From the sequence record PV040721.1: a stretch of 44,228 nucleotides of DNA. One strand, written 5' to 3'. Each line of letters starts with the position of its first letter. Within the stretch, counting starts at the first letter, position 1. This DNA comes from Escherichia phage BUCT825. Under the pieces are notes generated by a model. It searched no databases. It had not been told where the DNA came from and worked only from the letters and a program-made list of their open reading frames with translations. This document shows positions 13,150-32,117 of the stretch, piece by piece. The position numbers were made by a program, and so were the translations under genes.

Positions 13150-13151
13150 TT

Positions 13152-14094: not shown

Positions 14095-14108
14095 TTCCTA
14101 ACCGTGCT

Positions 14109-14148: not shown

Positions 14149-14153
14149 TCATC

Positions 14154-15717: not shown

Positions 15718-15843
15718 TGGACGAATACGAAGGCGTTTAGTAAACTTACATCACGCTGCTTGTGCTTGCATACTAAGCCCTGGTAAACCTGAAGCAGCAG
15801 CCCAGGCGGTGGAGACTGCGTAGGGTTCAGGGGCTTATGCCCG

Positions 15844-15874
15844 AAACCCGGACCGCGAATCCGGGTTTTATTTT
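15844..15874 (+). terminator. Intrinsic terminator (AAACCCGGA-CCGCGAA-TCCGGGTTT followed by TATTTT)
   Basis: Perfect stem plus U-rich tail downstream of endolysin. Confidence 0.7.
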
Positions 15875-15947
15875 ACCAATTGACACCTAAGACTAATCAG
15901 ACGATACTTAAATCACCTCCTGTTCCATCCCTCTGCTCTCCAGTTTT

Positions 15948-15979
15948 ATCCCGGCCCTGACCCAGCCGGGATTTTTTTT
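15948..15979 (+). terminator. Second intrinsic terminator (ATCCCGGC-CCTGACCCA-GCCGGGAT followed by TTTTTTT)
   Basis: 8-bp stem followed by T8 run. Confidence 0.75.
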
Positions 15980-16001
15980 ATCTGTTTTCTGTAATGACTA
16001 G

Positions 16002-16030
16002 TTGACTATTATCCTCGACCCTATTATATT
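16002..16030 (+). promoter_or_regulatory. sigma70-like promoter (-35 TTGACT, 17-bp spacer, -10 TATATT)
   Basis: TTGACTATTATCCTCGACCCTATTATATT upstream of the 16065 gene block. Confidence 0.55.
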
Positions 16031-16064
16031 TACTTCATCGACAACGAGAACGGAGTAGAGAGAA

Positions 16065-16262
16065 ATGGGCAACGTATCGACGATAGAAATAACCGAAGAA
16101 CTCGAAGTTAAATGTATCGCATCAGTTATAGGGAATGGTTCGGTGGAAAAACTACAGATGAGGGCTGCTGCGGGCTACATACGCAGGGCTAATAGCGCGC
16201 AGACTGATGTTTTACGTAAACGTTACCTCGTGAAAGCGTTAGAAATACTGGAGAATAACTAA
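16065..16262 (+). CDS. hypothetical protein (65 aa)
   Basis: ATG with SD GGAG. Confidence 0.5.
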   Translation: MGNVSTIEITEELEVKCIASVIGNGSVEKLQMRAAAGYIRRANSAQTDVLRKRYLVKALEILENN

Positions 16263-16411
16263 TGAAAATTACAGATATCGAAGCATTCAAAGACGCACAA
16301 CTGATGGCACGCATCGCCGTTAGCAACCTGAGCAACAGCATCCCAGCGGCTGCATTCTGGTTCGCCGCGATGCAGACACTGAAAGCAGCTTATGCAGGAG
16401 AGAAGAAATGA
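16262..16411 (+). CDS. hypothetical protein (49 aa)
   Basis: Manual translation MKITDIEAFKDAQLMARIAVSNLSNSIPAAAFWFAAMQTLKAAYAGEKK; start overlaps upstream stop. Confidence 0.4.
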   Translation: MKITDIEAFKDAQLMARIAVSNLSNSIPAAAFWFAAMQTLKAAYAGEKK

Positions 16412-16617
16412 TCGACGTTATCGTTGGTTGCATCTATAAGAGTAATTACTCGTGGGGTGATGTAGGTGAAGTTAGTTTCATTGTAACTGCGGTTGGGTTG
16501 GACCACGTACTTATCGCCGACTACCCATTGATGAAATTCAATGAATCCTATTCAGAATATTGTGTTGGTAGAAAGGAGTTCGAGGCTAAATTTAAGTTTG
16601 CAGGAGAGAAGAAATGA
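16408..16617 (+). CDS. hypothetical protein (69 aa)
   Basis: ATGA overlap; C-terminus FAGEKK encoded by repeated junction. Confidence 0.5.
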   Translation: MIDVIVGCIYKSNYSWGDVGEVSFIVTAVGLDHVLIADYPLMKFNESYSEYCVGRKEFEAKFKFAGEKK

Positions 16618-16811
16618 AAGTTAAAGCCGCTAAAATTCTCTGGTTAGCCGCCCTTGACTATGTGACAGAGGGTAAAGTGTACGATGTGTACAACCCGACA
16701 GCTACTGGTTTCGGTTATATAGACTCCGACGACGACTGCTATATTTTCATAGACTTTGGTAACGATGAAGGTGATGGCTTCCACGGCGTTAAATGGGAGA
16801 TTGTAGAATGA
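16614..16811 (+). CDS. hypothetical acidic protein (65 aa)
   Basis: ATGA overlap both ends. Confidence 0.5.
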   Translation: MKVKAAKILWLAALDYVTEGKVYDVYNPTATGFGYIDSDDDCYIFIDFGNDEGDGFHGVKWEIVE

Positions 16812-16966
16812 GCGAACAAGGTCAAGTAAGCCAACCATTACGAGTAGGCCGTAAAGTCAGTCACACCTCGTTCCCGACACGAGAGGAGCTTATGAAACGT
16901 AACAGTTTCCCGGGGCCGGACAAGAACAAGTATCTAAATCGCATGTGGGGAGAGCGTAAAGAATGA
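16808..16966 (+). CDS. hypothetical protein (52 aa)
   Basis: Manual translation MSEQGQVSQPLRVGRKVSHTSFPTREELMKRNSFPGPDKNKYLNRMWGERKE; ATGA overlaps. Confidence 0.35.
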   Translation: MSEQGQVSQPLRVGRKVSHTSFPTREELMKRNSFPGPDKNKYLNRMWGERKE

Positions 16967-17160
16967 CTGACCGTGAATATGAAAAGATGATGGTGGAGGC
17001 TGTTAACGGCGGCGTAGACATCAGTCACGTGATGCACGTCCTGAATACTAAAATCGCTGTAGCCGAGCAAATGGTTGAGTCACTTTACGAGACACGTCGT
17101 GAACTGATTAACCGCTTCAACCTGAACAAAGCATCCGGTGATGGGCATGAAAGCGCCTGA
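16963..17160 (+). CDS. hypothetical protein (65 aa)
   Basis: ATGA overlap. Confidence 0.5.
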   Translation: MTDREYEKMMVEAVNGGVDISHVMHVLNTKIAVAEQMVESLYETRRELINRFNLNKASGDGHESA

Positions 17161-17329
17161 ACCAGTAGTGATTGATGGCGTCCTGTGGAAACCATACTCT
17201 GTTAACCATATCGACGCCGACGGGAAGAAGTTTAGCTTCTACATTTTTGCGATTAGCCGTGAGCACGCCGCCTGTGTGGTCGATGATATACGAGAAACGG
17301 CGTGGCTTGGCGATGAGATAGTGGGGTGA
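17138..17329 (+). CDS. hypothetical protein (about 60 aa; start uncertain)
   Basis: ORF overlapping 3' end of previous gene. Confidence 0.4.
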   Translation: MMGMKAPEPVVIDGVLWKPYSVNHIDADGKKFSFYIFAISREHAACVVDDIRETAWLGDEIVG

Positions 17330-17416
17330 GAGTATGAGTCTTGAGGTTGTTATAAGTCTGGTTGGTCTTAGTTACTTCATTGGGCTGTTGGTTGGGTTTC
17401 TGTGGGGTAGGTACTA

Positions 17417-17587
17417 ATGTTCAGTGACATCAACGCGGCAATCGAGGAAGCAATATGGCGTCGTTACAACGGCGAGCAACAACGGCACTTCTGCCTGGTG
17501 CAACGTGGGAACATGATTGCTGTAGTGCAGGACCGCGATAACAAATATCCGAATGCGATGTGGACAACGAGGAATTTCTTAGGATGA
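17417..17587 (+). CDS. hypothetical protein (56 aa)
   Basis: Manual translation MFSDINAAIEEAIWRRYNGEQQRHFCLVQRGNMIAVVQDRDNKYPNAMWTTRNFLG. Confidence 0.35.
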   Translation: MFSDINAAIEEAIWRRYNGEQQRHFCLVQRGNMIAVVQDRDNKYPNAMWTTRNFLG

Positions 17588-17820
17588 TTACCAGCATTCC
17601 TAACCTGATTAAAGAATTTGGCACGATGGCCGAGACGTGCCGACAAACCGGCATCAACGAAATGACGATTGCGAAGTACAGCAAAGACGTGGACTGCGAG
17701 CGCCACGTAATTTATAACAACCGTCTGATGACGCACGTTAAAACAAGCCCGGTGTTATTCACGCGCCGGGGTATCACTAAAACTGAGCAACGTATCGCAC
17801 GAGAGGAGAGCGGGGAATGA
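17584..17820 (+). CDS. small HTH-like protein (78 aa), last gene before the late region
   Basis: ATGA overlap; helix-turn-helix-like segment ETCRQTGINEMTIAKYSKD. Confidence 0.45.
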   Translation: MITSIPNLIKEFGTMAETCRQTGINEMTIAKYSKDVDCERHVIYNNRLMTHVKTSPVLFTRRGITKTEQRIAREESGE

Positions 17821-17922
17821 GACTACTAATCATCCCTAACGCCCGGGCCATTCCCGTAGCTAACGACCATTACGGCGGCGACGGTAAAAGAGCACCACGC
17901 CACGGCCTATACAACTGATACA

Positions 17923-17946
17923 AGCCCTCTACCGAGGGCTTTTCTG
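17923..17946 (+). terminator. Intrinsic terminator (AGCCCTC-TACC-GAGGGCT followed by TTTCTG)
   Basis: 7-bp stem then T-rich tail. Confidence 0.6.
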
Positions 17947-17974
17947 TACATCCCGCCCAATCCCCTTATATAAT
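17946..17974 (+). promoter_or_regulatory. candidate late promoter: extended TTATATAAT -10 with poor -35
   Basis: TATAAT at 17969-17974; no TTGACA-like hexamer at -35; followed by palindrome AGACGCG-TAGGG-CGCGTCT (17981-17999). Confidence 0.3.
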
Positions 17975-18039
17975 CCATTTAGACGCGTAGGGCGCGTCTG
18001 GTGCGCTCTGATGGTCAGACGCATATGCAAGGGGATTCT

Positions 18040-18588
18040 ATGAAGCTGAAACTCAAGCAGCCATCACCAGAGGTGGTGCAAGCTGCACATGAAGAAGCTG
18101 TTAGCGCAAACCGTCGCCGTAAACGACCGCGCGGTAAACAGAGCCTTTATCAATCATCCCGTAATTCCGCCGCGTTGTGGGACCCGGACTATTGTGACGA
18201 ATTGATTCGTTTCTTCGACCGCACGTCGTGGGAGGCTATGCCGACCGGTGCGCACGGAGACTACAAAGCAGTCATTGCGGATAAACCGCCATCACTGGCT
18301 CGCTTCGCCTTACACATCGGTGTCACTATCCCGATTATTAAGCTGTGGCTGCGCGAGATTCCCTCATTTGCAGAAGCCTATGAAACGGCACAGGCGCTGG
18401 AAGAGGCGTATTTCACTGAGAATGGGGCCGCCGGTATCTCTGCTACGTTCGCCGCCGCTAAGCTGGGCCTTAGCAAAGAGAAACCAGTCGAATCCACCGA
18501 AGAAACAGCACCGACCGAGATTATTTTCAGTGTCGCGGAGCCTGTGGGTAAAATCGTAACAACGAATATGGGCGAGGTAGAGGAATGA
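18040..18588 (+). CDS. terminase small subunit (about 182 aa)
   Basis: Immediately upstream of and overlapping TerL; basic N-terminus, HTH-like PSLARFALHIGVTIPIIKLWL, acidic C-terminus; ATG at 18040 with GGGG SD. Confidence 0.6.
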   Translation: MKLKLKQPSPEVVQAAHEEAVSANRRRKRPRGKQSLYQSSRNSAALWDPDYCDELIRFFDRTSWEAMPTGAHGDYKAVIADKPPSLARFALHIGVTIPIIKLWLREIPSFAEAYETAQALEEAYFTENGAAGISATFAAAKLGLSKEKPVESTEETAPTEIIFSVAEPVGKIVTTNMGEVEE

Positions 18589-19835
18589 GTATTCAGCTAT
18601 CCGCACCACAGGCGCTGTTCCTGAATTGCGACAATAAATATAAAGCCTATGTCGGGGGCTTCGGCAGCGGAAAGACATTTGTCGGCTGTCTGGACCTGCT
18701 TACGTTTATGCTCAAGCACCCCGGTACGCGCCTGGGCTACTTCGGCCCGACCTATCCCGCCATCCGTGACATCTTCTACCCAACATTCGAGGAAGCGGCT
18801 AACCTGCTCGGCCTTGATGTGCTGGTTAAATCCGGCGACAAAGAAGTCGTGGTTACTCGCGGTAAGACGGTGCTCGGGACCGTTATCTGCCGCTCTATGG
18901 ATAACCCCGGCTCGATTGTGGGTTTCAAAATCGCCGCAGCATGCGTGGATGAGCTCGATGTATTGAGCCGCGAGAAAGCCGAGCTGGCGTGGAACAAAAT
19001 TGTGGCCCGTATGCGTCTGGTTATCCCGGGTGTAACTAACCACATCTCTGTTACCACGACGCCGGAAGGGTTCAAGTTCGTCTACGCCAAGTTCAAAGAG
19101 AATCCGACGCCAAGTTACTCGATGGTTCAGGCTTCTACACACGAGAACGCGCGATTTCTGCCCCCGGACTACATTAGCTCACTGACCGAGACTTATCCCG
19201 CGCAACTGATTAACGCGTATCTGAACGGTGAGTTCGTCAACCTTACCTCCGGCAGCGTGTACTACGCATACGACCGACGCAAACATCGCAGCAAAGAGAC
19301 AATTCAACCGGGCGACACGCTGTACATCGGCCAGGACTTCAACGTTACGAAGAACGCCAGCGCCGTATATGTGCAGCGTAAAGACGGCTGGCACGCGGTG
19401 GCAGAACTGAAAGGCCTGTTTGATACGCCAGACACCGTGCGTGTAATTACTGAGAAGTGGAAGTCGCAGGACCACCGCATAGTCGTTTACCCGGACGCCA
19501 GCGGCAAGAACCGCAAAACCAACTCGGCATCAATCTCAGATATTGCGTTACTCCAGCAGGCCGGGTTCGATGTTCGCGCTAAATCCGCCAACCCCCCGGT
19601 TAAAGACCGTGTTTTAGCCGTGAATACCGCGCTGGAAAAAGGTAAGCTGTGGGTTAACGACCACTTATGCCCCGAGATAGCGAAGACGCTGGAGCAGCAG
19701 GCATACGACGATAACGGAGAGCCAGCTAAAGACGGCATCATTGACCATATGGCGGATGCTCTCGGCTATCCGGTAGTTTACGAGATGCCGGTGGTTAAAC
19801 CAGTAATCAACATCCCGGTGACTTTCGCACTTTAA
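18585..19835 (+). CDS. terminase large subunit (416 aa)
   Basis: Walker A GGFGSGKT, Walker B AACVDELD, C-terminal nuclease-like region. Confidence 0.85.
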   Translation: MSIQLSAPQALFLNCDNKYKAYVGGFGSGKTFVGCLDLLTFMLKHPGTRLGYFGPTYPAIRDIFYPTFEEAANLLGLDVLVKSGDKEVVVTRGKTVLGTVICRSMDNPGSIVGFKIAAACVDELDVLSREKAELAWNKIVARMRLVIPGVTNHISVTTTPEGFKFVYAKFKENPTPSYSMVQASTHENARFLPPDYISSLTETYPAQLINAYLNGEFVNLTSGSVYYAYDRRKHRSKETIQPGDTLYIGQDFNVTKNASAVYVQRKDGWHAVAELKGLFDTPDTVRVITEKWKSQDHRIVVYPDASGKNRKTNSASISDIALLQQAGFDVRAKSANPPVKDRVLAVNTALEKGKLWVNDHLCPEIAKTLEQQAYDDNGEPAKDGIIDHMADALGYPVVYEMPVVKPVINIPVTFAL

Positions 19836-19847
19836 GAGGATTATTCA

Positions 19848-21329
19848 ATGTTAACTATGAACGGTCAGAATCAGGGTGTTAAGACTAAACACCGGGAATG
19901 GCTGCATCACTTCGATAAATGGCAGAAGGTACGCCACGCGCTGGAAGGCGACCTTATTCGCTACCTGCGCAACGTCGGGAAGAACGAACCCGACCCGACG
20001 TACGCTGCGCAGCGCCAGGAAGAATACGAGAACGGCGCTATCTGCTACAACTTCACCAAGCGCACCCTGGCTGGGATGGTCGGCAGTGTCATGCGCAAAG
20101 ACCCTGAACAGATTATTCCGCCTGAACTGGAGTACCTGTTACGTAACGCGGATGGTTCTGGTGTTGGGCTGTGGCAGCACGCGCAAGACACTTTGATGGA
20201 GATTGACTCAGTGGGTCGAGGTGGGTTGCTGGTGGACGCCCCGGAGACCGCCGCGGCAACGGCGGCAGAGCAGAACGCGGGGTTATTAAACCCGGTCATC
20301 GCTTTCTATACCGCAGAGAACATCATCAACTGGCGACTGACCCGCGTCGGTTCTGTTAACCGTGTGACAATGGTCGTGTTGCGTGAAGTGTGGGAATACT
20401 CAGAACCTGGAGCAGAGTTCGAAACTAAGTTCGGTGAACAGTACCGCGTCCTTGACCTGATTGATGGTCGCTACCGCCAGCGCATTTACCGTTTCGACGC
20501 CGAGGGCGGCGCTCAGGGCGAAGTAATCGAAATCTTCCCGGAACTCGGCGAACAGTTACGCGGCAAAATCCCGTTCACGTTCATTGGTGCAAGCAACAAC
20601 GATGCAACCATTGACGATGCACCTTTGCTGCCGTTGGCTGAGCTTAATATTGGGCATTTCCGCAACAGTGCAGACAATGAGGAGTCCAGCTTCGTCGTAG
20701 GCCAGCCTACTCTGTTCATCGCCCCCGGTGAGAACATGAGCATGGAACAATGGAAAGAAGCCAACCCGCACGGAGTGCGCATGGGGTCTCGTTCAGGCCA
20801 TAACATCGGGTACGGCGGCAACGCGTTTCTGGTTCAGGCAGGGGAGAACAACCTCGCCAAACAGAATATGCTGGATAAAGAGAATCAGGCCATTCAGATT
20901 GGCGCGCAGCTTATCACCCCGACGCAGCAAATCACCGCCGAATCCGCCCGCCTGCAACGCGGCGCCGATACGTCAGTCATGGCAACAATCGCGCGTAACG
21001 TAAGCATGGCGTACACCGATGCATTGCGCTGGGTGGCTGCCATGCTTGGGCTTAGTGATGGTACTGAGATTGAGTTCAAACTTAATATGGAATTCTTCCT
21101 GCAACCGATGACCGCTCCCGAACGAGCGCAGTGGACGGCGGATATTAACGCTGGCCTGCTACCCGCTACTGCTTATTACGCGGCATTGCGCAAGGCCGGT
21201 GTAACTGACTGGACAGACGAAGATATTCGGAACGCTATCGATGATGCGCCGCTGCCGTTGGGTACTGTTACTCAGGTAGAGGGAGAGATTCCGCAGTCGG
21301 CGCAGCAACAAGACGCCACTCAGCCGTAA
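19848..21329 (+). CDS. portal protein (493 aa)
   Basis: Size and position directly after TerL, followed by terminator and head morphogenesis gene. Confidence 0.7.
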   Translation: MLTMNGQNQGVKTKHREWLHHFDKWQKVRHALEGDLIRYLRNVGKNEPDPTYAAQRQEEYENGAICYNFTKRTLAGMVGSVMRKDPEQIIPPELEYLLRNADGSGVGLWQHAQDTLMEIDSVGRGGLLVDAPETAAATAAEQNAGLLNPVIAFYTAENIINWRLTRVGSVNRVTMVVLREVWEYSEPGAEFETKFGEQYRVLDLIDGRYRQRIYRFDAEGGAQGEVIEIFPELGEQLRGKIPFTFIGASNNDATIDDAPLLPLAELNIGHFRNSADNEESSFVVGQPTLFIAPGENMSMEQWKEANPHGVRMGSRSGHNIGYGGNAFLVQAGENNLAKQNMLDKENQAIQIGAQLITPTQQITAESARLQRGADTSVMATIARNVSMAYTDALRWVAAMLGLSDGTEIEFKLNMEFFLQPMTAPERAQWTADINAGLLPATAYYAALRKAGVTDWTDEDIRNAIDDAPLPLGTVTQVEGEIPQSAQQQDATQP

Positions 21330-21339
21330 GTTCACCTAT

Positions 21340-21360
21340 AGCCCCGAAAGGGGCTTTCTT
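21340..21360 (+). terminator. Intrinsic terminator (AGCCCC-GAAA-GGGGCT followed by TTCTT)
   Basis: GNRA-type loop hairpin after portal gene. Confidence 0.65.
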
Positions 21361-21365
21361 ACAGT

Positions 21366-22442
21366 ATGCTATTAACTTTAGCGCCACAGGGTTTATCTAT
21401 GAGCTTACTTACATCTCTAATTAGCCACCAGATATGGCTGCAACGTACTGCATCCGGTGAGGTGAAAGACCTAGCACCGTTCATTCAGGAGATGCGGGAC
21501 GAAATCAAACGGCAGGTGCTGTTATTCGGCGATGATGGCCGCAGCACCGCCCGGCTGAATAAACTGTTACGCGACCTTGAAGAAGCACTGGCTGGACTTA
21601 CAGTTGACTGGCAAACAAAGCTGACAGAAGACCTTAAGGAACTGGCGGCATATGAGGCTGAGTGGAACGTAAAGACACTTACCACCAACGTTAACGCGGA
21701 ATTTGTTACACCTACCGCCGAGCAGGTGTGGGCCGCTGCCGAGTTTCAACCTCTGTCGCTAAGTGACAAGCCCGTTGACTTCACCAAGCTGATGTCAGGC
21801 TGGGGTGAAGCGGAGGTCGCGCGCCTTGTAACTGGCGTTAAGATGGGCTTTGTGCAAGGCCAAACCACACGGCAGATTGTTAAAGAAGTAGTTGGTAAAG
21901 GCGGCCTGGCTGACGTATCAGAGAAACACGCTGCTACAGTAATCCGCACCGCGCTGTCCCACGTGTCCAACGAAGCCCGTAATGAGACGTACCGCCAGAA
22001 CGACGACATTATCGAGAAATATGAGTGGGTGTCTACTCTTGATTCTAGGACCTCAGCCGTTTGCAAGGCCAGAGATGGGATGACGTGGGAAATCGGTAAA
22101 GGGCCGATGCCCCCCGCCCATCCGAACTGCCGGTCGTGCACGGCTCCGGTAATCAGTTCGGAGTTCGACTTCCTGGATAAAGGCGCAAAACGCGCGGCTA
22201 AGGGTGCGGACGGAGGTACTCAGGTAAGCGCAGACACCACTTACTACGAGTTCCTGAAACAACAACCGGCATGGTTTCAGGACCAGGCTCTAGGCCCGGT
22301 GCGGGGTAAGATTTTCCGTAACAGCGGTATATCGCCGGAAGAGTTTCGCGTAATATCTGTAGATGGTTTCGGGAATCCGCTCACGCTTAAGCAGATGGCG
22401 GAACTCGATAAACGTGTTGCTGATTATCTGAAAGGGGAATAA
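21366..22442 (+). CDS. head morphogenesis protein (SPP1 gp7 / Mu F-like)
   Basis: C-terminal LDSRTSAVCKARDGMTWEIGKGPMPPAHPNCRSC signature. Confidence 0.65.
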   Translation: MLLTLAPQGLSMSLLTSLISHQIWLQRTASGEVKDLAPFIQEMRDEIKRQVLLFGDDGRSTARLNKLLRDLEEALAGLTVDWQTKLTEDLKELAAYEAEWNVKTLTTNVNAEFVTPTAEQVWAAAEFQPLSLSDKPVDFTKLMSGWGEAEVARLVTGVKMGFVQGQTTRQIVKEVVGKGGLADVSEKHAATVIRTALSHVSNEARNETYRQNDDIIEKYEWVSTLDSRTSAVCKARDGMTWEIGKGPMPPAHPNCRSCTAPVISSEFDFLDKGAKRAAKGADGGTQVSADTTYYEFLKQQPAWFQDQALGPVRGKIFRNSGISPEEFRVISVDGFGNPLTLKQMAELDKRVADYLKGE

Positions 22443-22903
22443 TGATGGGCTTTTTCAAAGTAACTGATGTACCGTCGCGTCGCGTAGTCCAGTACGCCCG
22501 TGTGCCTGGCTCCGGCGAGAACGTGGTATTTATTGAAGATGAAAGTGTACTGGGTGCGCCCGTAGACGATATGCCGTTTGCAGATAAAACCGGTATTGCG
22601 CTACCGGCGGCGGGCATGCTTTATGAGATTCAGTACCTGGCGGATGCTGGTGATGTGTATTTCTCCGTACAACCGCAGGACGCTGAACTGGCAGACGGCA
22701 GCGCAAATATCGCTGTCGAAGTTAAGGCGGGCAAAGCACCATATGCGCTGACCTGGTACAAAGACGGGAAGGAAGTGGTTAACGCCCCGGAAGAGGCTTT
22801 GTCTCTGACGGTTAATTCTGTTGGGGAATACTTCGTTAAAGTTACTGATGCCGATGGTGTAGAGGCCGTCAGTAAAGCGGCGAAGGTCACTAAGCCAGAA
22901 TAA
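22442..22903 (+). CDS. Ig-like domain protein (153 aa), possible capsid decoration/accessory protein
   Basis: C-terminal Ig-like pattern PYALTWYKDGKEV...VGEYFVKVTDADG. Confidence 0.55.
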   Translation: MMGFFKVTDVPSRRVVQYARVPGSGENVVFIEDESVLGAPVDDMPFADKTGIALPAAGMLYEIQYLADAGDVYFSVQPQDAELADGSANIAVEVKAGKAPYALTWYKDGKEVVNAPEEALSLTVNSVGEYFVKVTDADGVEAVSKAAKVTKPE

Positions 22904-22908
22904 ACTGA

Positions 22909-22929
22909 AGCCCCGAAAGGGGCTTTTTA
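22909..22929 (+). terminator. Intrinsic terminator (AGCCCC-GAAA-GGGGCT followed by TTTTAG)
   Basis: Same hairpin as at 21340. Confidence 0.65.
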
Positions 22930-22978
22930 GTGCCTGTGATTATTCCAGTTATTCCACTCAATTGTAAATGTTGGAATA

Positions 22979-22994
22979 AACTATTCGAATAGTT
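22979..22994. promoter_or_regulatory. Perfect 16-bp palindrome AACTATTCGAATAGTT (candidate operator) overlapping a -35 hexamer
   Basis: Self-complementary sequence read directly; half-site ACTATTC recurs in several promoters. Confidence 0.5.
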
Positions 22995-23021
22995 GACTTT
23001 TCACTTAAAATGTGCTAAGCT
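22993..23021 (+). promoter_or_regulatory. candidate promoter (-35 TTGACT, 17-bp spacer, -10 TAAGCT)
   Basis: Hexamers and spacing read directly; weak -10. Confidence 0.35.
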
Positions 23022-23201
23022 CCACCTGAGCTTGTGAAGTATGAACAAGCGACCGCGGCGCGGGCAGGTAACGGAGCGGGGCGTTAGCCCTGAGTGTAGT
23101 TACGCTGACGCGTTCGGAAGGGCCATACTCTATTGCTTGTGTAAAAAGTAACTGGTTTACTGAGATTACGCCGTTTCTATGTTTAAATGATAAGGACTAG
23201 C

Positions 23202-23226
23202 GCCCCGCTTTATGGCGGGGCTTTAC
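23202..23226 (+). terminator. Intrinsic terminator/attenuator (GCCCCGC-TTTATG-GCGGGGC followed by TTTACTTAT) immediately upstream of the Rz RBS
   Basis: 7-bp GC stem plus U-rich tail. Confidence 0.55.
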
Positions 23227-23245
23227 TTATCGAGAAAGGAGAAAC

Positions 23246-23632
23246 ATGAATATTAAAGCAACTGTCGTAGCAGGAGCATGTTACATCATCCTGTTATACA
23301 CGCACGGCTACTATCAATACCGCAGCGGCTGGAACGGAGGCAGGGCTAATCTAGTTTCGCAGCAACAGCAGAAAGCACAGGCTGAGTTAGCGAAGAAAAC
23401 ACAACGGCAGCAGCAGGACGAATCAAAGGCCGCCGCCGCTGACAACGAAGGCAAGACGAAATCAGAGGTGATTACCCGTGAAGTCGTTAAGTACATTAAA
23501 ACGCCTGGCCGCAGCGTGTGCACTTTCGACGATGCTCGCGTCCTGCTCAAGTCCCGCGCCGTCGCAAACGCCAATTCCATCCCCGGATACGACGATGATG
23601 CAGCCGCCATGCAAACTGGCCGCGCCAAGTAG
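23246..23632 (+). CDS. Rz: i-spanin (Rz-like), 128 aa
   Basis: N-terminal TM anchor VVAGACYIILLY, Gln-rich coiled-coil region, overlapping out-of-frame lipoprotein gene. Confidence 0.7.
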   Translation: MNIKATVVAGACYIILLYTHGYYQYRSGWNGGRANLVSQQQQKAQAELAKKTQRQQQDESKAAAADNEGKTKSEVITREVVKYIKTPGRSVCTFDDARVLLKSRAVANANSIPGYDDDAAAMQTGRAK

Positions 23633-23741
23633 CGATGCCGATGAGGATTTAGCCATTGACGTTCAGAACACAGAATGTGTACGGCAACTGCGTCTGAAAG
23701 TGTTCATGTTGCAGGATTACGTGAGGAATATTCTGGAATAG
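23478..23741 (+). CDS. Rz1: o-spanin (Rz1-like lipoprotein), 87 aa, GTG start, overlapping Rz in another frame
   Basis: Signal peptide with lipobox LASC, Pro-rich mature part SSPAPSQTPIPSPD; SD AGAGGTG before GTG. Confidence 0.65.
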   Translation: MKSLSTLKRLAAACALSTMLASCSSPAPSQTPIPSPDTTMMQPPCKLAAPSSDADEDLAIDVQNTECVRQLRLKVFMLQDYVRNILE

Positions 23742-23823
23742 TTGCCTTGCATGTTGGAATAATTTATTCTTGACATGTAAATCCGGGTGGCCCGGGTTCC
23801 AACGTCCAGGGGACATACTGACT

Positions 23824-24525
23824 ATGAATCGTTTTTTACGTTATCCGTTCCAGGAAGAAGCTGGGGCAGAAGATAAAGCTGGTGGCGGTGACGCGCCAAA
23901 AATGTTCACCGCTGAAGAAGTTCAGGCGCTGATTGAGAAAGAAGTAGCCGGGCTTAAGGCCAATCAGGAAGTGTTGCTGGCGGAGAAGAAAGAAGCCGCT
24001 CGTAAAGCAAAAGAGGCCGAAGAAGAACGGCAGCGTGCCCACCAGGAGGCGTTAAAAGCCGCTGGTAAGATGGACGAGTTCGAAAAGACGATTCGTAGCC
24101 AGTATGACCCGGTGTTAGCTGAGAAAGATGGTCGCATCTCCAAAATGGCAGAGCGCATCCTCGGCAGCGAACGTAAAGCGGTGTTAGGCTCTTTCGCGGG
24201 CGACTTTATCACCCCTGAAGCAGTAGACATTCTTGCACCGTTCGTTAAGACTGAGTTCGAAGGCGATGATGTGGTTACTAAGTTTGTCGGCGCAGATGGC
24301 AATGTAATCACAACTGACCCGGAACAGTTCCGTAAATATTTGCGTGAACACAAAGCGTTTTCGCATTTGATTAAAGCAAATGCAGCTTCCGGCGGCGGGG
24401 CTTCCGGTGGCAAAGGCGGCGGGGCCGCACCAGCGTTTAAAGACATGAGTGAAGCAGAGCGTTTAGCCCTGTATAAATCGAACCCTGCCGAATTTGAACG
24501 GCAACTTAAAGCCCTGAGGAAATAA
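23824..24525 (+). CDS. scaffolding protein (about 233 aa)
   Basis: Charged coiled-coil protein immediately upstream of major capsid gene; Gly-rich ASGGGASGGKGGGAA segment. Confidence 0.6.
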   Translation: MNRFLRYPFQEEAGAEDKAGGGDAPKMFTAEEVQALIEKEVAGLKANQEVLLAEKKEAARKAKEAEEERQRAHQEALKAAGKMDEFEKTIRSQYDPVLAEKDGRISKMAERILGSERKAVLGSFAGDFITPEAVDILAPFVKTEFEGDDVVTKFVGADGNVITTDPEQFRKYLREHKAFSHLIKANAASGGGASGGKGGGAAPAFKDMSEAERLALYKSNPAEFERQLKALRK

Positions 24526-24527
24526 TA

Positions 24528-25577
24528 ATGGCAATTACTACTATCGGCGATATCGTAACTGGCAACATCCCGGTCCTGGCGTCTTATATGACCGAGGACC
24601 CGGTAGAAAAAACCGCGTTCTTCCAGTCTGGTATTCTGACCCCGACCCCATACGCTGCCGAGATTGCCCGCGGCCCGTCCAACATCGCTAATATTCCTTT
24701 CTGGAAAGCGATTGATACCTCTATCGAGCCAAACTACTCGAACGACGTATACCAGGATATCGCTACCCCGCGTAACGTGCGGACCGGTGAGATGATGGCA
24801 CGCGTTGCATACCTGAACGAAGGTTTCGGCCAGGCGGACCTGACTGTCGAACTGACCAGCCAGAACCCGCTGCAATCAGTAGCTTCTCGCCTGGATAACT
24901 TCTGGCAGCGCCAGGCACAACGCCGTCTGATTGCCACCGCGCTCGGTCTGTACAATGACAACGTGGCCGCTACCGACGCATACCACGAGCAGAACGACAT
25001 GGTGATCGACGTGTCCGCTACTAAAGGCTTCGACGCGGGCGCGTTCATCGACGCTACCCAGACTATGGGTGATGCGCTGATGGGCAACGGCGGTGAAGTG
25101 CTGGGCGCTATCGCAATGCACAGCTTCGTTTATGCGCAGGCCCGTAAGCAGCAGCTTATTGACTTCATCAAAAACGCTGACAACGATACCCTGTTCGCCA
25201 CCTACCAGGGCTACCGCGTGATTGTTGATGACAGCATGACGGTAGTTGGTACAGGCCCGAGCCGTAAGTTCATCTCCATCATCTTCGGCAACGGCGCTAT
25301 CGGTTACGGCGAAGGTAACCCGAAAAATCCGCTGGCATATGAGCGCGAAGAGTCCCGCGGCAATGGTGGCGGTGTCGAAACCTTGTGGACCCGTAAGACC
25401 TGGTTACTGCACCCACTGGGCTACAGCTTCACCAGCGCGGTAATCACCGGTAACGGCACCGAGACTATCGCACGTTCTGCTTCCTGGCAGGACCTGGCGA
25501 ACGCCTCCAACTGGAACCGTGTGGTTGAACGTAAGCACGTACCGATTGCCTTCCTGGTGACTGGTGCAGGTGCTTAA
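24528..25577 (+). CDS. major capsid protein (349 aa)
   Basis: Position after scaffold, strong terminator downstream, size typical of HK97-fold coat proteins. Confidence 0.75.
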   Translation: MAITTIGDIVTGNIPVLASYMTEDPVEKTAFFQSGILTPTPYAAEIARGPSNIANIPFWKAIDTSIEPNYSNDVYQDIATPRNVRTGEMMARVAYLNEGFGQADLTVELTSQNPLQSVASRLDNFWQRQAQRRLIATALGLYNDNVAATDAYHEQNDMVIDVSATKGFDAGAFIDATQTMGDALMGNGGEVLGAIAMHSFVYAQARKQQLIDFIKNADNDTLFATYQGYRVIVDDSMTVVGTGPSRKFISIIFGNGAIGYGEGNPKNPLAYEREESRGNGGGVETLWTRKTWLLHPLGYSFTSAVITGNGTETIARSASWQDLANASNWNRVVERKHVPIAFLVTGAGA

Positions 25578-25593
25578 GGTTAAGCTATAATCG

Positions 25594-25620
25594 AGAGGGA
25601 CTTCGGTCCCTCTTTTCATT
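25594..25620 (+). terminator. Intrinsic terminator (AGAGGGAC-TTCG-GTCCCTCT followed by TTTCATTT)
   Basis: 8-bp stem, UUCG loop, U-rich tail. Confidence 0.7.
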
Positions 25621-25638
25621 TACTAAGAGGATTCCTAA

Positions 25639-25980
25639 ATGGCAGACGTATTGAAGCGACGCATCACCGGCGTCTCCGCTGACACCCCGGGTGCTAAGAT
25701 TGACATGGCGACTATTTCTCCTGCGTCTTTCTCTTCCGCGCTGGCGGCTACTACCGCAGTGACCACAGGTGAAACTATGACGCTGACCGTAACGGTAGCC
25801 GGCGGTCTGGAGCCATATTATTACCAGTGGTATAAGAATAACAACGCTATCGCCGGGGCAAACGCTGCTTCCTATGCGAAGGCGTCCACTACTACCGCAG
25901 ATTCAGGCACGTATAAAGTGGTTGTTCACGATGTGTATGGTAATATTATCTCCAGCAGCACTGTAGCAACTGTGTCTTAA
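25639..25980 (+). CDS. Ig-like (I-set-like) domain protein, 113 aa
   Basis: EPYYYQWYKNNNAI...DSGTYKVVVHDVYG Ig-like signature. Confidence 0.6.
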   Translation: MADVLKRRITGVSADTPGAKIDMATISPASFSSALAATTAVTTGETMTLTVTVAGGLEPYYYQWYKNNNAIAGANAASYAKASTTTADSGTYKVVVHDVYGNIISSSTVATVS

Positions 25981-26016
25981 TACAACGGCCCTTCGGGGCC
26001 GTAATAGGGAAAGGTC

Positions 26017-26196
26017 ATGGCAGATAATTATGTAATCCGCGAAAAATACACCCACGTTGACATTGTTGACGGCCAGGTGATGCCTGTTCGCGGTGCTGTA
26101 GAAGCGGATGAACTGGTTGAGACTCAACCAGACAACGAAGAAGCGCACAACAACGGTGGTGGTACTAAGCGTCGTCGCCGTAAGTCGGAGGAATAA
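26017..26196 (+). CDS. small protein with basic C-terminus (59 aa)
   Basis: Manual translation MADNYVIREKYTHVDIVDGQVMPVRGAVEADELVETQPDNEEAHNNGGGTKRRRRKSEE; SD GGGAAAGG. Confidence 0.4.
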   Translation: MADNYVIREKYTHVDIVDGQVMPVRGAVEADELVETQPDNEEAHNNGGGTKRRRRKSEE

Positions 26197-26199
26197 TTC

Positions 26200-26712
26200 A
26201 TGCCGCTAATCGTGGAAACTGGGGCAATCGTCCCGAATGCCGACAGTTACATTAGTCTGGCTGACGCCCGCGCGTTAGCGGCTAATTACGGTCTTGAGTT
26301 ACCCGCCGATGACATTGATGCTGAAGTTGCCTTACGCAACGGCGCTACCTATGTCGGGCTTGCAGAGCCGCAGATGTGTGGTCGTCGAGTATCTGCCGAA
26401 CAGTCTCTTGCGTACCCGCGCACCGGTGTTACGTTGAATGGTTTCCCTGTAGCGAACAATGTCATCCCGAAGCAGGTTATTCTTGCGCAGGTAATCGCCG
26501 CGGTCACCTATGGTGCAGGTACTGAAGTACGGGCTAACTCAGATGGTCGCGCCGTGCAGACGGAGCGTGTTGAGGGTGCAGTGACAGTGACGTACTTCAA
26601 CAACGGCAACAGTGGAGCTACGACCACGATTACCGCAGCGGACGACGCCTTACGCCCGTTACTGTGTGGCGGTCTTAACAATGGCTTCTCGTTTAACGTG
26701 TACCGGGGTTAA
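26200..26712 (+). CDS. head-tail connector/adaptor protein (gp6-like), 170 aa
   Basis: N-terminal SYISLADARALAANYGLELPADD resembles head-tail connector family signature; strong SD GGAGGAA. Confidence 0.5.
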   Translation: MPLIVETGAIVPNADSYISLADARALAANYGLELPADDIDAEVALRNGATYVGLAEPQMCGRRVSAEQSLAYPRTGVTLNGFPVANNVIPKQVILAQVIAAVTYGAGTEVRANSDGRAVQTERVEGAVTVTYFNNGNSGATTTITAADDALRPLLCGGLNNGFSFNVYRG

Positions 26713-26714
26713 AA

Positions 26715-27329
26715 ATGGCGAAGACTAAAACAGAGATGTTTACCCTTATCGGTGCAAATCTTCCCGATAACACCACCGGACTTATTACCCCCGCCGCATT
26801 GCGCGAGGTAATGACTCAGATGGCTGACTCGCCTATTTACGCAACTCCTGGAGTGAAAGAGGTTGAAGTTCTTCGCGCCGCGTCTACTGTAACCCAAGCT
26901 CCTACCGCGGTAAATACAGCACTGCAGTTAACTTTCGGCTCTGCTCAGGGTAGCGCATCCGACCCTGTAATGATTAATGCTGCGGGGCTGGTTACGTTCA
27001 ACACCGCTTGGAACTATGCCGTTCGCATCAAGTTACAGGCCGGGCGCACTGGTGCTAGTGGGACATCCATCCTGCTATCACGTATTTTAGTAAACGGTGC
27101 TCAGTACGGCTCGCCCGCCGCCACGAAACTAGTCAGCGCCGACACAACAATTCCTATTGAATCACGCGTCGTTATTAACCCGACCGCTGGCCAGACGTTT
27201 GCCGTTCAGATTATGCGGGATAGCGCCGGAAGCAACTTCGGCGGCGTGTACCCGCAAGCGGCTACCGTAACTGCATGGGGTACAGCACCGTCAGCATTAC
27301 TGGTTATCTCGAGACTGGAGGCCGCCTGA
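26715..27329 (+). CDS. virion structural protein (204 aa)
   Basis: Position in head-tail joining region; overlapping start/stop. Confidence 0.45.
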   Translation: MAKTKTEMFTLIGANLPDNTTGLITPAALREVMTQMADSPIYATPGVKEVEVLRAASTVTQAPTAVNTALQLTFGSAQGSASDPVMINAAGLVTFNTAWNYAVRIKLQAGRTGASGTSILLSRILVNGAQYGSPAATKLVSADTTIPIESRVVINPTAGQTFAVQIMRDSAGSNFGGVYPQAATVTAWGTAPSALLVISRLEAA

Positions 27330-27688
27330 TGAGCACCGCTTTCAGTAAGCGTATGCAAGGCGTGGGTACGCGCCTGCTAACTAAATTCGGTAGCACGGTA
27401 TCTCTGATTCGCGCTGGCTCAAAAGTGTGGGATGAAGTTCTCGGTGAATATGTCTGGTCTGACGATGAAGTGTTGCCGTTGAAGGCCGTTCCAGTTCCGG
27501 TAAACGCAGGACTGGTGAACGGTACGACTATTCAGGCAGGCGACATGATTGTTAAAGCGGATTGCAGCGTCGTTCCGAAGATGGAAGACAAGGTGCAATT
27601 CGGCGGCGAGCAATGGTCTGTCGTAGCCATTGAGAAGAAGATGGTTAACGATGATGTCGTGGCCTACTTTATCCAGGTGAGAAAATGA
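27329..27688 (+). CDS. head-tail joining protein (about 120 aa)
   Basis: ATGA overlap at 27329; position. Confidence 0.45.
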   Translation: MSTAFSKRMQGVGTRLLTKFGSTVSLIRAGSKVWDEVLGEYVWSDDEVLPLKAVPVPVNAGLVNGTTIQAGDMIVKADCSVVPKMEDKVQFGGEQWSVVAIEKKMVNDDVVAYFIQVRK

Positions 27689-28080
27689 GTTTCGCGCTCG
27701 ATGTCTCTAAGTTCGTGGAAAAGGCGAAGAAGAACCCCGAGAAGGTGATGCGTCAGGTGTCTATCAAGTTGTTTTCCGCTATTATAAAGGCGAGTCCGGT
27801 AGATACTGGCCGCTTTCGTATGAACTGGATGGCGTCTGGCGGTATTCCTGCTTCTGGAGTTACAGATGCTACCGATAAATCAGGAAACACGGCAACCGGA
27901 AACGCCACGAGTTTCGTACTGAAAGCCGCCGACTGGCGCGAGTTCACGCTGACAAATAATCTGCCGTATGCACAACGGCTGGAGTATGGCTGGTCGCAAC
28001 AGGCACCCGCCGGGGTGGTCAGGACTAACGTGTCCCGCTTCCAGCAACTCATTAACGAAGAAGCCAACAAGGTGAAATGA
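27685..28080 (+). CDS. tail completion/neck protein (HK97 gp10-like), 131 aa
   Basis: PVDTGRFRMNW motif. Confidence 0.5.
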   Translation: MSFALDVSKFVEKAKKNPEKVMRQVSIKLFSAIIKASPVDTGRFRMNWMASGGIPASGVTDATDKSGNTATGNATSFVLKAADWREFTLTNNLPYAQRLEYGWSQQAPAGVVRTNVSRFQQLINEEANKVK

Positions 28081-28493
28081 TGGGCTACTTTGAGGACTTA
28101 ACAAAAGCGTTTGATGTGCCGCTGGTAGCCTTCGGAACCGCCAACGGCATCAAAGTCGCGCTTGAAAATATCGGCGCACCGACGTCAACCGATACACCAT
28201 ATCTGGCAAGTTACATGTTGCTGGCGGATACGGAACAGGCGGATTTGTTCTTCACGGAACAACGCGCTGGCGTCTATCAGGTAGATATTAACTACGCATC
28301 GGTGAAAGGTAGCGCGCCAATCAATAAAATGGCAGACTTACTTAACACGGCGTTTAAAGCAGGTAAGTCATTTTCACGTAACGACATCTGCGCCGAGGTT
28401 CAATCGGTTAGCCTGGGGCCGCTGATTGTAGAAAACGGATGGGCCAAACGACCATTGTCAATTAACTTTATTGCATTCACCAAGAGGCTGTGA
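28077..28493 (+). CDS. tail terminator-like protein (138 aa)
   Basis: Position immediately upstream of major tail gene. Confidence 0.45.
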   Translation: MMGYFEDLTKAFDVPLVAFGTANGIKVALENIGAPTSTDTPYLASYMLLADTEQADLFFTEQRAGVYQVDINYASVKGSAPINKMADLLNTAFKAGKSFSRNDICAEVQSVSLGPLIVENGWAKRPLSINFIAFTKRL

Positions 28494-29662
28494 ATATGGC
28501 TACAACTCCTTTTAAGGGCGCGAATACTGCGCAATTCTATGTGGCAGAAACTATCCCCGGCGTAACACCAAGTAACCCGGTCTGGTCGCCATTGCGCAAT
28601 ACGGGCGGCGTTCCCGCCATTACCCGCGACACGCTGACCTCCAACGAACTGGACGGCAGCCGTGAAACTACGTCCATCCGCACCGGTAACAAACAGGTTA
28701 GCGGGGAATACGCCATCGAGCTTAGCTCGAAAAGCCAGGACGACTGGTTAGCTGGGGCTTTAGGTTCTACGTGGCAATCCGGTGTTTCTCTGTCCGGTCT
28801 GTCTATTACCGTCGCCCCGGCGGGAAAGACGTTCACCCGTGCTGATGGCAGCTTTATTACCGACGGCGTTGAAGTGGGTGACCTGATTGCGTTTACCGAC
28901 TTAACGGGTGATAACGCCAAACCGTTTATTGTTACTGCAGTAACGGCTACGGTTGTTACTGGTGCGGGCATCCAACACACCCTGACCACCGAGACAAAAA
29001 CTAGTAAGGCTAAAACTGGCGACACGTTGGAAACCGGTAACGCGTGTAAGACGTTCTCTATCCTTACCTGGTACAAAGGCCAGTGCGGCGGTACTGACGC
29101 GTACACGTTAACCAAAGGCGTGGAAGTTTCTGGTTTTACCATCGAACAGGCTGTTAACGCGATGGTAACTGGCAGCTTCCCATTCATCGGTCGCAGTCAG
29201 GAGATTCTCACTACGCCGCCGACCGGTTCCAACTTCTCATCTGTTACTTTTGGTGATGAGCCGTTCTCTTCGGTTGACGTTTCCGTGTTCGACGGCTCTA
29301 CGCCGTTGCGTTGCGACAGTCTGACTATCACCAACGATAACAGCGCGTCCGCGCAGTTCGAACTTGGTAACACTAACGTAGCGTTTGTGGAGCGTAGCCG
29401 TGCAGCTAACACCTTCTCCATCTCCGGTAAGCTGTATGACATGGCGATGATTCAGAAGTTTATCAACGAGCAGCAGGTAGAGATTAACTCCATTCTGGCG
29501 GGGGTAAACGGGGCTATGTCTTTCAGTTTGAAACGTGCAGAGCTTACGGCGGTCACACCTGAGATTGGTGGCCCTGAGTCAATCACTCAGTCTATTGAAG
29601 GCCAGGCCACCGGCAACCAGTACCAGTCGTCTATCGTAATTCAACGTATTAGTTACGCGTAA
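28490..29662 (+). CDS. major tail (tube) protein, 390 aa
   Basis: Large Thr/Ser/Gly-rich protein followed by strong terminator; position before chaperone/TMP block. Confidence 0.55.
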   Translation: MNMATTPFKGANTAQFYVAETIPGVTPSNPVWSPLRNTGGVPAITRDTLTSNELDGSRETTSIRTGNKQVSGEYAIELSSKSQDDWLAGALGSTWQSGVSLSGLSITVAPAGKTFTRADGSFITDGVEVGDLIAFTDLTGDNAKPFIVTAVTATVVTGAGIQHTLTTETKTSKAKTGDTLETGNACKTFSILTWYKGQCGGTDAYTLTKGVEVSGFTIEQAVNAMVTGSFPFIGRSQEILTTPPTGSNFSSVTFGDEPFSSVDVSVFDGSTPLRCDSLTITNDNSASAQFELGNTNVAFVERSRAANTFSISGKLYDMAMIQKFINEQQVEINSILAGVNGAMSFSLKRAELTAVTPEIGGPESITQSIEGQATGNQYQSSIVIQRISYA

Positions 29663-29666
29663 AACT

Positions 29667-29690
29667 AAGGCCCCGAAAGGGGCCTTTTCC
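29667..29690. terminator. Bidirectional intrinsic terminator (AAGGCCCC-GAAA-GGGGCCTT) between convergent tail-tube and kinase genes
   Basis: 8-bp stem flanked by A-run upstream and T-run downstream; near-identical copy at 42199-42222. Confidence 0.7.
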
Positions 29691-30245
29691 CTACAAACCT
29701 AATTTTAAAGCAATGTCTATAACGTTCGATTTAACGTCACCTGGTATGATGTAGGTGTCGTAATCTTTTACACCATCAACGCCATACAGATAGCCACGGC
29801 TGTCCCCTTCAAACGTATAGCCGTCTCTGTGCAAGCGAACAATTCTTACGTCATGCCCAGCGGCGACGATAGGGACCACTTCACTGGCGAATCCACCGTC
29901 GGACACTACAAAAACTTCGTCGCCGTCAGGCAAGTTTTCAGCGAGATATTTACCGAAATAATCGCTGCCGAGGGCCGGTTTAATGAATTGTTCAGAGATA
30001 GCAATCATGAACCGACGGCGCGACAACCCATTAAGGAAACCTTCTGGCTTTTCTTTCCTGGCCCGGTCGTCGTAGCCGTCGAGAAACTCGTGGTAAGCAT
30101 CCGGGCCTAACGCAGCCATAGCGATATTGAACATCGGATTCTTGAAACTGGTAGTTCCTTTCGCAAAGCCCATTTCTACCAGTGCCATAGCAAGCGTGTC
30201 TTTCCCGCAACCCGCAGGGCCATTAAGAATAATTACCTTAGCCAT
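29691..30245 (-). CDS. P-loop nucleotide kinase, T4 Dnk-like (dNMP kinase family), 184 aa
   Basis: Walker A ILNGPAGCGKDT resembles T4 Dnk LSGVKRSGKDT; start overlaps HAD stop by 1 nt. Confidence 0.7.
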   Translation of the reverse strand: MAKVIILNGPAGCGKDTLAMALVEMGFAKGTTSFKNPMFNIAMAALGPDAYHEFLDGYDDRARKEKPEGFLNGLSRRRFMIAISEQFIKPALGSDYFGKYLAENLPDGDEVFVVSDGGFASEVVPIVAAGHDVRIVRLHRDGYTFEGDSRGYLYGVDGVKDYDTYIIPGDVKSNVIDIALKLGL

Positions 30246-32087: not shown

Positions 32088-32117
32088 TTTAAACCCCTTC
32101 ATTGTTGGTGTAAGTGA

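Follow-up and report, generated by a model that had tools for sequence, protein, structure and literature searches.

The gap at positions 22904-23245 of Escherichia phage BUCT825, 342 nt between a Hoc-like decoration gene with an Ig domain and the gene for the Rz i-spanin, contains a unit of about 200 nt that, on comparative sequence evidence, is a conserved, structured non-coding RNA element. The RNA family it represents is previously undescribed, is real, and is carried by a large and practically important group of phages. The window, that is, the entire 44,228-nt stretch of DNA analyzed here (PV040721.1), derives from a Kagunavirus (Guernseyvirinae; K1G-like siphophages of E. coli and Salmonella); approximately 180 Kagunavirus genomes match the region of the unit at 94-98% identity, and one stretch of the window is identical to vB_EcoS_XY1. 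A first-pass annotation of this DNA had delimited the unit by a promoter, TTGACT-N17-TAAGCT, which is present as described at 22993-23021, and by a hairpin resembling an intrinsic terminator, which was likewise found (stem 23202-23221, tail to 23231), with no larger ORF between them; only a 36-aa frame lies in the gap. Unseen in that annotation were a structured module at the 5' end of the RNA, a set of operator-like repeats, and the recurrence of the module at another operon. The features of the locus are as follows.

22442-22903: Hoc-like decoration gene (Ig-domain), followed by a hairpin AGCCCC-GAAA-GGGGCU and UUUUU
22941-22992 (+): operator-like TATTC/GAATA repeats, comprising TTATTCC twice, GGAATAAACTATTC, and a palindrome TATTCGAATA abutting the -35 element
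22993-23021 (+): predicted sigma-70-type promoter, with -35 TTGACT at 22993-22998, a 17-nt spacer, and TAAGCT at 23016-23021
23022-23137 (+): 5' RNA module (P1, P2-P3, unpaired AAGGGCC, linker, CUAUUG), defined by covariance model and pair counts
23030-35/23045-50 (+): P1, hairpin GCUUGU/ACAAGC at the extreme 5' end, with 99% of cells paired
23053-23117 (+): long irregular hairpin of four helical segments, P2a, P2b, P2c and P3
23053-55/23115-17 (+): P2a
23057-61/23110-14 (+): P2b
23065-72/23099-23107 (+): P2c
23076-82/23087-95 (+): P3, with double changes at all four P3 pairs
23118-23135 (+): unpaired AAGGGCC, a 6-7-nt linker (free in sequence, fixed in length) and CUAUUG, conserved
23138-23200 (+): 3' half of the RNA, with a tentative P4, the block GAUUACGCCGU at 23164-74, and an AU-rich stretch
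23147-51/23157-61 (+): tentative P4 hairpin, showing wobble-compatible changes only and no double changes
23189-23231 (+): terminator-like hairpin, with a GC stem at 23202-09/23214-21 of 8 pairs (7 G-C) and loop UUAU
23236-41 (+): Rz ribosome-binding site AAGGAG, 5 nt past the hairpin tail
23246-23632 (+): Rz i-spanin, its ATG 14 nt past the hairpin tail
23478-23741 (+): Rz1 o-spanin, embedded in the Rz region

Given the 14 nt between the hairpin tail and the Rz start codon, transcription of Rz/Rz1 has to cross the hairpin, as the first-pass annotation had reasoned; by sequence inspection, the space between hairpin and Rz is too short for any promoter. Behind the leader, Rz/Rz1 are followed by the scaffold, capsid, and tail genes, and another plus-strand terminator-like site is located 3' of the capsid gene (25593-25614). 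The spanins are the only lysis genes directly downstream, the holins and endolysin being encoded in the preceding operon. The unit holds its position regardless of which genes lie upstream of it.

The sole ORF of at least 25 amino acids on either strand of 22904-23245 is a 36-aa frame at 23041-23151 (+), which had been given as 38 codons ending at 23157; it overlaps the RNA module and starts in the P1 loop region, and no Shine-Dalgarno sequence precedes its start, where the first-pass annotation had seen no convincing one. That this frame codes for a small protein is a reading to which we attach almost no credence. It is intact and of equal length in 28 of 37 Kagunavirus loci, and Shashou and other GenBank records carry it as a hypothetical protein, both of which would suit a gene. 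Within the sample used for the coding test (37 Kagunavirus loci from IMG/VR plus the window), however, single-nucleotide indels, hence not multiples of three, break the frame in six haplotypes (seven loci), among them L003, L004, L011/12, L016, and L023, while L027 lacks the start codon and L009 and L033 lack the stop. Codon positions 1, 2, and 3 contribute 13, 15, and 10 variable columns, respectively, without third-position bias, so that the search for protein-like substitution came out against coding and upheld the earlier view of the unit as non-coding. Moreover, the ORF is missing from Jerseyvirus, Cornellvirus-type, and second-copy loci, though the RNA structure persists in each. Comparison of the relatives thus indicates that the 36-aa ORF is not a gene. 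The frame is listed as a hypothetical protein at L001:1692-1802 (Shashou, CPT_Shashou_007) and in several Kagunavirus and Jerseyvirus genomes; such entries are probably mis-annotated RNA.

Conservation of the unit is three to five times that of the flanking Rz and scaffold genes. Specifically, among Kagunavirus loci, nucleotide diversity is 0.02-0.05 across 22990-23245, whereas the values for Rz and the scaffold gene are 0.10-0.20 and 0.13-0.27, respectively, and the homologous unit is 90-100% identical among 269 Jerseyvirus records. The sequences within the 5' module vary in a manner that preserves pairing. P1, which begins 2-3 nt past the inferred transcription start, is replaced at the same position by hairpins formed from other sequences in Jersey-type (ACGCU-UUC-AGCGU) and Cornellvirus-type (CGUUC-UAC-GAACG) leaders, and the long hairpin is recovered in every lineage by single-sequence folding as well as by alignment folding. 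When 19 sequences were aligned with plain MAFFT, standard pairs filled 97.4% of pair cells, and 17 cells carried double changes, as compared to 3.7 in shuffled alignments, none of 500 of which reaches 17. A covariance model built from this alignment, designated R1, matches every first copy of the module at 123-147 bits, the second copies at 71-130 bits, and the Jersey-type copies at 42-48 bits. Covariation among homologues, which the first-pass annotation had proposed looking for, is evident once 33 distinct sequences are aligned with R1: pairing holds in 98.3% of cells, compensatory double changes occur in 16 of the 28 pairs, the covariation score is 0.318 versus 0.121 in shuffles, and pairing falls to 27-42% when partners are slid by 1-3 columns as a control. 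Because the R1 alignment is fitted to the structure, independent support for the fold is provided by the minimum free energy (MFE) folds and the MAFFT counts. Individual pairs illustrate the pattern; 23059:23112 is C-G in 20, U-A in 12, and A-U in 1 of the distinct sequences, with zero mismatches, while 23069:23102 is found as U-A, A-U, or G-C. The tandem G-U pairs of P2b would read C-A on the opposite strand, which assigns the fold to the plus-strand transcript.

The segment 23116-23135 contains an invariant GGAAGGG and an invariant UAUUG, and resembles a Shine-Dalgarno sequence with a UUG or AUU start; the frames that follow are 1-10 codons in length and not conserved, and three second copies read UUG-UAA. 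At 23053-63, a local hairpin CCGC-GGY-GCGG excludes P2a/P2b, and vice versa. The second copy in ST20 carries two changes that restore only this local hairpin, and Cornellvirus-type leaders have CGCC-GCAA-GGCG at its position; the local hairpin may be a folding intermediate or a switch. Several further candidates were considered and set aside: a pseudoknot joining AGUAUG in the P1 loop to CAUACU in the linker, which appears in some MFE folds, involves a linker that varies freely and a loop that is constant; pairing of a repeated GCUUGUG (23135-41) with the 3' arm of P1 is absent in the second copy and broken in L035; and a leader mini-ORF from AUU at 23132 to UAG at 23198 is put out of frame in L009 by one inserted nucleotide and in L027 by a deletion. 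Inspection of the aligned leaders yielded no conserved match to boxA, ops, or sigma-dependent pause motifs, and the initially transcribed region contains no -10-like element conserved across lineages.

The promoter is marked by an extended -10 'TG' at 23013-14 (TGcTAAGCT), a feature overlooked in the first-pass annotation, and transcription is inferred to start at about 23027-23029. A consensus scanner passed over this promoter because TAAGCT fits TATAAT at just 3 of 6 positions. Nevertheless, among 32 sequences from three genera the -35 positions T.GA.T, the 17-nt spacing, and TG.TA..CT are invariant while the sequence of the spacer varies, and the same promoter stands before the second copies of the module. 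The TATTC/GAATA repeats upstream are kept in Kagunavirus, Jerseyvirus, and Cornellvirus-type loci, and similar half-sites occur at 23729-23769 (TATTCTGGAATA, GGAATAATTTATTC), upstream of a TTGACA that precedes the scaffold gene. These half-sites look like an operator set for one phage DNA-binding regulator. An internal promoter candidate, cTGAgA-N17-TGtTTAAAT at 23160-23188, was rejected, as it is not conserved in Jersey-type loci.

With a nucleotide diversity of 0.016-0.037, the mostly unpaired 3' half of the RNA is conserved like the module but is nearly devoid of compensatory change; Kagunavirus and Jerseyvirus have in common the blocks GAUU(A)CGCCGU and AUGUUUA. The terminator-like hairpin that follows is extended beyond its GC stem by pairing of 23198-200 with 23223-25 and of GAUAAG with CUUAUC (23189-94/23226-31). 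The stem covaries, one pair being seen as C-G, G-C, A-U, and U-A, and where Kagunavirus has GAUAAG/CUUAUC, Jersey-type stems are flanked by AUACG/CGUAU; as these flanks differ by genus yet stay complementary, the tail appears to be constrained by pairing rather than by U content. In Kagunavirus, the tail is UUUACUUAUC, the sequence TTTACTTATC runs to 23231, and the U-tract is interrupted, while no proper U-tract follows the hairpin in the other genera (Jersey CUUAGCGUAUA, Cornellvirus-type CACUGUUACG). A long uninterrupted U-tail was found in none of the three, the Jersey and Cornellvirus-type tails being UUAGCGUAUA and ACUGUUACG, respectively. A cleanly terminated sRNA is therefore not a conserved property of the family. 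The hairpin at 23202-23221 is one of the two best plus-strand terminator-like sites in 10000-29900. With 12 terminator-like sites found versus 5.5 expected, and a fold z-score of -1.68, the promoter and terminator motifs by themselves do not exceed chance, and their reality rests on comparison, namely the invariant promoter positions and the covarying stem. Of the attenuation raised in the first-pass annotation, the classical route through alternative pairing found no support in this comparison: 23075-23091 is complementary to the 5' arm of the terminator (23193-23209) at 15 of 17 positions, but this candidate antiterminator does not covary and was rejected. In L001, L003, and L004, changes in P3 and in the terminator stem occur without regard to each other, and stem changes in L001 and L020 are likewise unmatched.

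Partial second copies of the element were first detected by nhmmer in some Kagunavirus contigs, and are present in approximately 54 of 180 Kagunavirus records (about 30%), where they consist of the promoter and the 5' module without the 3' half. These copies were located as follows.

L175:3001-3257, in fFiEco02
L123:11806-11923 (-)
L117:21-138
L126:1777-1894 (-)
L176-L178

In the second copies, P2c and P3 are strongly diverged and the fold is kept, and each copy is followed by its own GC hairpin and UUUA. The second copy heads the early plus-strand operon, divergent from the HTH and helicase-primase genes, an operon that comprises small early genes, holins, endolysin, terminase, portal, and head-morphogenesis genes. 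There, the copy replaces the 5' part of the early leader, with the junction at a common CUAUU motif, an arrangement that suggests modular exchange of leader cassettes. A search of the window that included R1 found a single copy of the module, so that duplication is not a general property. The early leader of the window itself (10195-10634) comprises about 400 untranslated nucleotides behind a promoter TTGACA-N17-TAAGGT, with a fold z-score of -3.46, and includes a hairpin at 10468-10488 followed by TTTAGTTACC, which is the other of the two best plus-strand terminator-like sites in the 20 kb considered; the 3' two-thirds of this leader is 85-89% identical in more than 300 Jerseyvirus records. 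As judged from the second copies and from the early leader of the window, both long rightward operons open with a promoter, an untranslated structured leader, and a terminator-like hairpin. A 26-nt motif, CCCCAAYATAATAGGKTACTATTCAC, was also observed at 10578-10603 (+) and 32114-32139 (-), where chance would predict 0 occurrences; in both cases an operon's first gene begins a short distance downstream, and a third copy is found just before the operator of the leader in those Kagunaviruses that have a minus-strand gene there (e.g., L002).

In total, the element is carried by approximately 450 deposited genomes, comprising about 180 Kagunavirus and 269 Jerseyvirus genomes, the latter with one copy each. 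Cornellvirus-type phages (GRNsp27, FSL SP-031, phiEap-2), to which R1 is blind, have a diverged leader at the same position, with the same operator and promoter layout, a P1-like hairpin, the sequence ...CGGAAGGGYCG, and a long hairpin in which a G-C pair is compensated as A-U. The leader of VLCpiS11a (L050), a Klebsiella member, is a different one and gives no R1 match. Comparison with Rfam 15 gave no match at the gathering threshold across the whole window, and a search of 22850-23900 up to E 10 gave four matches only (E = 1.9-4.5), all far under threshold; ARAGORN found no tRNA or tmRNA, and no relative of the unit was found in E. coli genomes. A loose pattern retrieved 120 stretches from IMG/VR, among which nhmmer scored Guernseyvirinae contigs only and R1 matched none of the 96 others. 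A stricter pattern applied to 185,579 GTDB genomes returned 77 chance matches and one 738-bp Jersey-like contig. That contig (L255, NZ_JACVEL010000048.1), part of a Taishania pollutisoli assembly, contains the RNA in its Jersey-type form, scoring 42 bits with R1, and is most likely phage contamination of the assembly. In the literature, nothing relevant was found on RNAs of these genera, nor any transcript, termination, or read-through data for the group.

Taken together, these features are read here, tentatively and with somewhat less than even confidence, as those of a cis-acting leader that would govern read-through into Rz/Rz1 and later genes. The unit would form the leader of the operon that opens with Rz/Rz1 and also comprises the scaffold, capsid, and tail genes. 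Unless acted upon, RNA polymerase would halt at the hairpin and release an RNA of about 200 nt; the 5' module would act in cis on the transcribing polymerase, either directly, in the manner of HK022 put, or via a recruited phage or host factor, in the manner of nut; and a polymerase so modified would pass both the hairpin at 23202 and terminators farther on, among them the one that follows the capsid gene. The terminated product of about 200 nt may additionally have a role of its own, as does lambda 6S RNA. Such a leader is favored by the observation that the unit is non-coding and under strong selection (diversity of 0.02-0.05 versus 0.10-0.27 in Rz and scaffold). It is further suggested by the covarying fold, with P1 2-3 nt from the inferred start and no room for a separate Rz promoter, by the apparent reuse of the module at the head of the early operon within the same promoter-leader-hairpin design, and by the predicted plus-strand terminator downstream at 25593-25614. 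No Q- or N-type antiterminator was recognized with Pfam and PHROGs in 10 early ORFs, and none is named in the careful annotation of the relative fFiEco02. Precedents exist in put (PMC9378689) and in lambda 6S/Q (bioRxiv 10.1101/2024.10.31.621285). On the other side, neither R1 nor alignment indicates significant likeness to put, the U-tract is poor in Jersey and Cornellvirus-type loci, such that there may be little termination and hence little to antiterminate, initiation may be the main point of control, to judge from the operator-like repeats, and duplication is not general, the window having one copy.

A more specific form of the cis-acting leader, which we consider doubtful, holds that the 5' module is by itself a sufficient put-like antiterminator RNA, unrelated to put in sequence, that would bind the RNA polymerase of E. 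coli or Salmonella and confer terminator resistance over many kilobases, thereby constituting a portable promoter-plus-RNA cassette at the head of the rightward operons of virulent Guernseyvirinae. If this were true, RNA-only processive antitermination would not be just a curiosity of HK022-like temperate phages. A put-like model requires the 5' module alone, yet the 3' half is at least as conserved, which points to an added or different, sequence-specific role.

Alternatively, the unit may be a free-standing, trans-acting sRNA of about 200 nt, with its own promoter and a hairpin end, that pairs with or sequesters host or phage RNAs or proteins, possibly in association with Hfq. This reading appears unlikely to us, if not negligibly so. 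The unit running from promoter to hairpin is of sRNA size, its position is constant whatever lies upstream, and all 210 nt, with the AU-rich, unpaired 3' half among them, are very conserved without compensation, as would befit a seed or protein-binding sequence, candidate seed blocks that are conserved and unpaired being found at 23118-23124, 23130-38, and 23164-74; in addition, its positional analogue, lambda 6S RNA, binds Hfq and has targets (bioRxiv 10.1101/2024.10.31.621285). An sRNA fits poorly, however, with a U-tail that is interrupted in Kagunavirus (UUUACUUAUC) and near absent in Jersey and Cornellvirus-type loci, with an extended hairpin that pairs the tail with upstream sequence, and with a second copy that is limited to the 5' module and continues into genes, nor has the unit any similarity to E. 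coli DNA. The reuse of the 5' module in front of different hairpins, as seen behind copies 1 and 2, recalls the pattern of an aptamer and expression platform, and together with the covarying 5' domain and its invariant internal-loop and junction nucleotides would suit a riboswitch-like or factor-dependent attenuator, in which the module serves as an aptamer for a metabolite, ion, or protein that sets hairpin formation. The two exclusive pairings of 23053-63, of which the second copy in ST20 compensates only the local one, and the complementarity in the window between 23075-23091 and the 5' arm of the terminator would also fit. We regard a switch of this kind as quite improbable, given that the antiterminator pairing is without covariation (changes in the stem in L001 and L020, and in P3 in L003 and L004, are unmatched), that no overlap of the hairpin with the 3' end of the module was found, and that no Rfam riboswitch matches even up to E 10. 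Furthermore, a simple hairpin plus a long hairpin without a multi-helix junction is an unusual architecture for a metabolite aptamer, and this is the architecture of the module.

In three genera, P1 lies 2-3 nt from the inferred 5' end although the sequences differ. This would fit a further explanation, namely that the unit is a 5'-UTR element of stability or processing, in which P1 shields the mRNA from 5'-end-dependent decay and the extended hairpin of 16-17 bp acts as an RNase III-type site at which the leader is trimmed, thereby setting translation of Rz. The hairpin is lengthened by genus-specific complementary flanks (GAUAAG/CUUAUC versus AUACG/CGUAU) and lies 5 nt from the Rz ribosome-binding site, and a module at the 5' end of two operons would suit a generic stabilizer. 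For a stabilizer, however, the 65 nt of long hairpin with invariant loop nucleotides and the conserved 3' half would be superfluous, continuous pairing in the extended hairpin, which is interrupted by large internal loops, stays below 20 bp, and the recurrent design of hairpin and UUUA is left unexplained; we accord this explanation a small likelihood. None of the sRNA, switch, and stability readings excludes a leader role.

Kagunavirus and Jerseyvirus rank with the most commonly isolated phages of E. coli and Salmonella, and are used in therapy and biocontrol cocktails. In the approximately 450 deposited genomes that carry it, the element either has no annotation or is wrongly entered as a hypothetical protein of 36 aa. 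No RNA polymerase of their own is annotated in these phages, and no account was found in the literature of how they time their lysis and structural genes. The two cassettes, one before Rz/Rz1 and the capsid genes and the other before the early-lysis-packaging operon, offer a concrete control point. Should the module act directly on RNA polymerase, antiterminator RNAs would have a second family, independent of the first, and synthetic biology would gain a compact part; should the unit be an sRNA, a widespread sRNA of virulent phages would join a very short list.

Among known systems, transcriptional riboswitches and leader attenuators resemble the unit in having a structured 5' domain and a terminator-like hairpin, and in the reuse of the domain with other hairpins; unlike these, the unit belongs to no Rfam family, has no known ligand, and offers no terminator/antiterminator alternative that comparison supports. 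A positional parallel is provided by the late leader of phage lambda, pR'-6S-tR', in which a host-type promoter, a 194-nt RNA, and a terminator precede the lysis genes and then the head and tail genes, and from which 6S RNA arises as a stable, Hfq-bound species (bioRxiv 10.1101/2024.10.31.621285). In like fashion, the unit has its promoter at 22993-23021, a hairpin at 23202-23221 with a tail, a predicted RNA of about 200 nt, and Rz at 23246, and downstream expression needs read-through. The two differ in that no Q homologue or Q-binding element was recognized here (10 early ORFs, fFiEco02 annotation), that the spanins alone lie directly downstream while the holins and endolysin belong to the operon before, and that the phage RNA studied here contains a covarying structured domain. 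To our knowledge, nothing comparable to this domain has been described for lambda 6S; no sequence similarity to 6S was seen, in searches that were not specific to lambda.

The put RNA of phage HK022 has a consensus of about 70 nt, comprising a stem I with a triplex and a stem II, and promotes read-through in cis without protein factors via the beta' zinc-binding domain. It is formed by promoter-proximal nascent RNA as two irregular stem-loops at two operon heads, with terminators behind and no dedicated antiterminator protein (PMC9378689). The putL and putR elements were located at L174:636-712 (-) and L174:1878-1919 (+), respectively, and Rfam has no put model. The best local alignment of putL/putR with the module scores 18, a value equalled by 9.6% of shuffles, and R1 gave no match in the HK022 put region; membership in the put family is not supported on these grounds. 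The module is also longer, at about 95-115 nt versus about 70 nt, its conserved 3' half is without a put counterpart, and in the window it occurs once and before the late rather than the early operon. Despite these differences, the module, like put, consists of two stems, follows closely on a promoter where a long operon with terminator-like hairpins (23202, 25593) begins, and, in about 30% of Kagunaviruses, is present in two copies at two operon heads.
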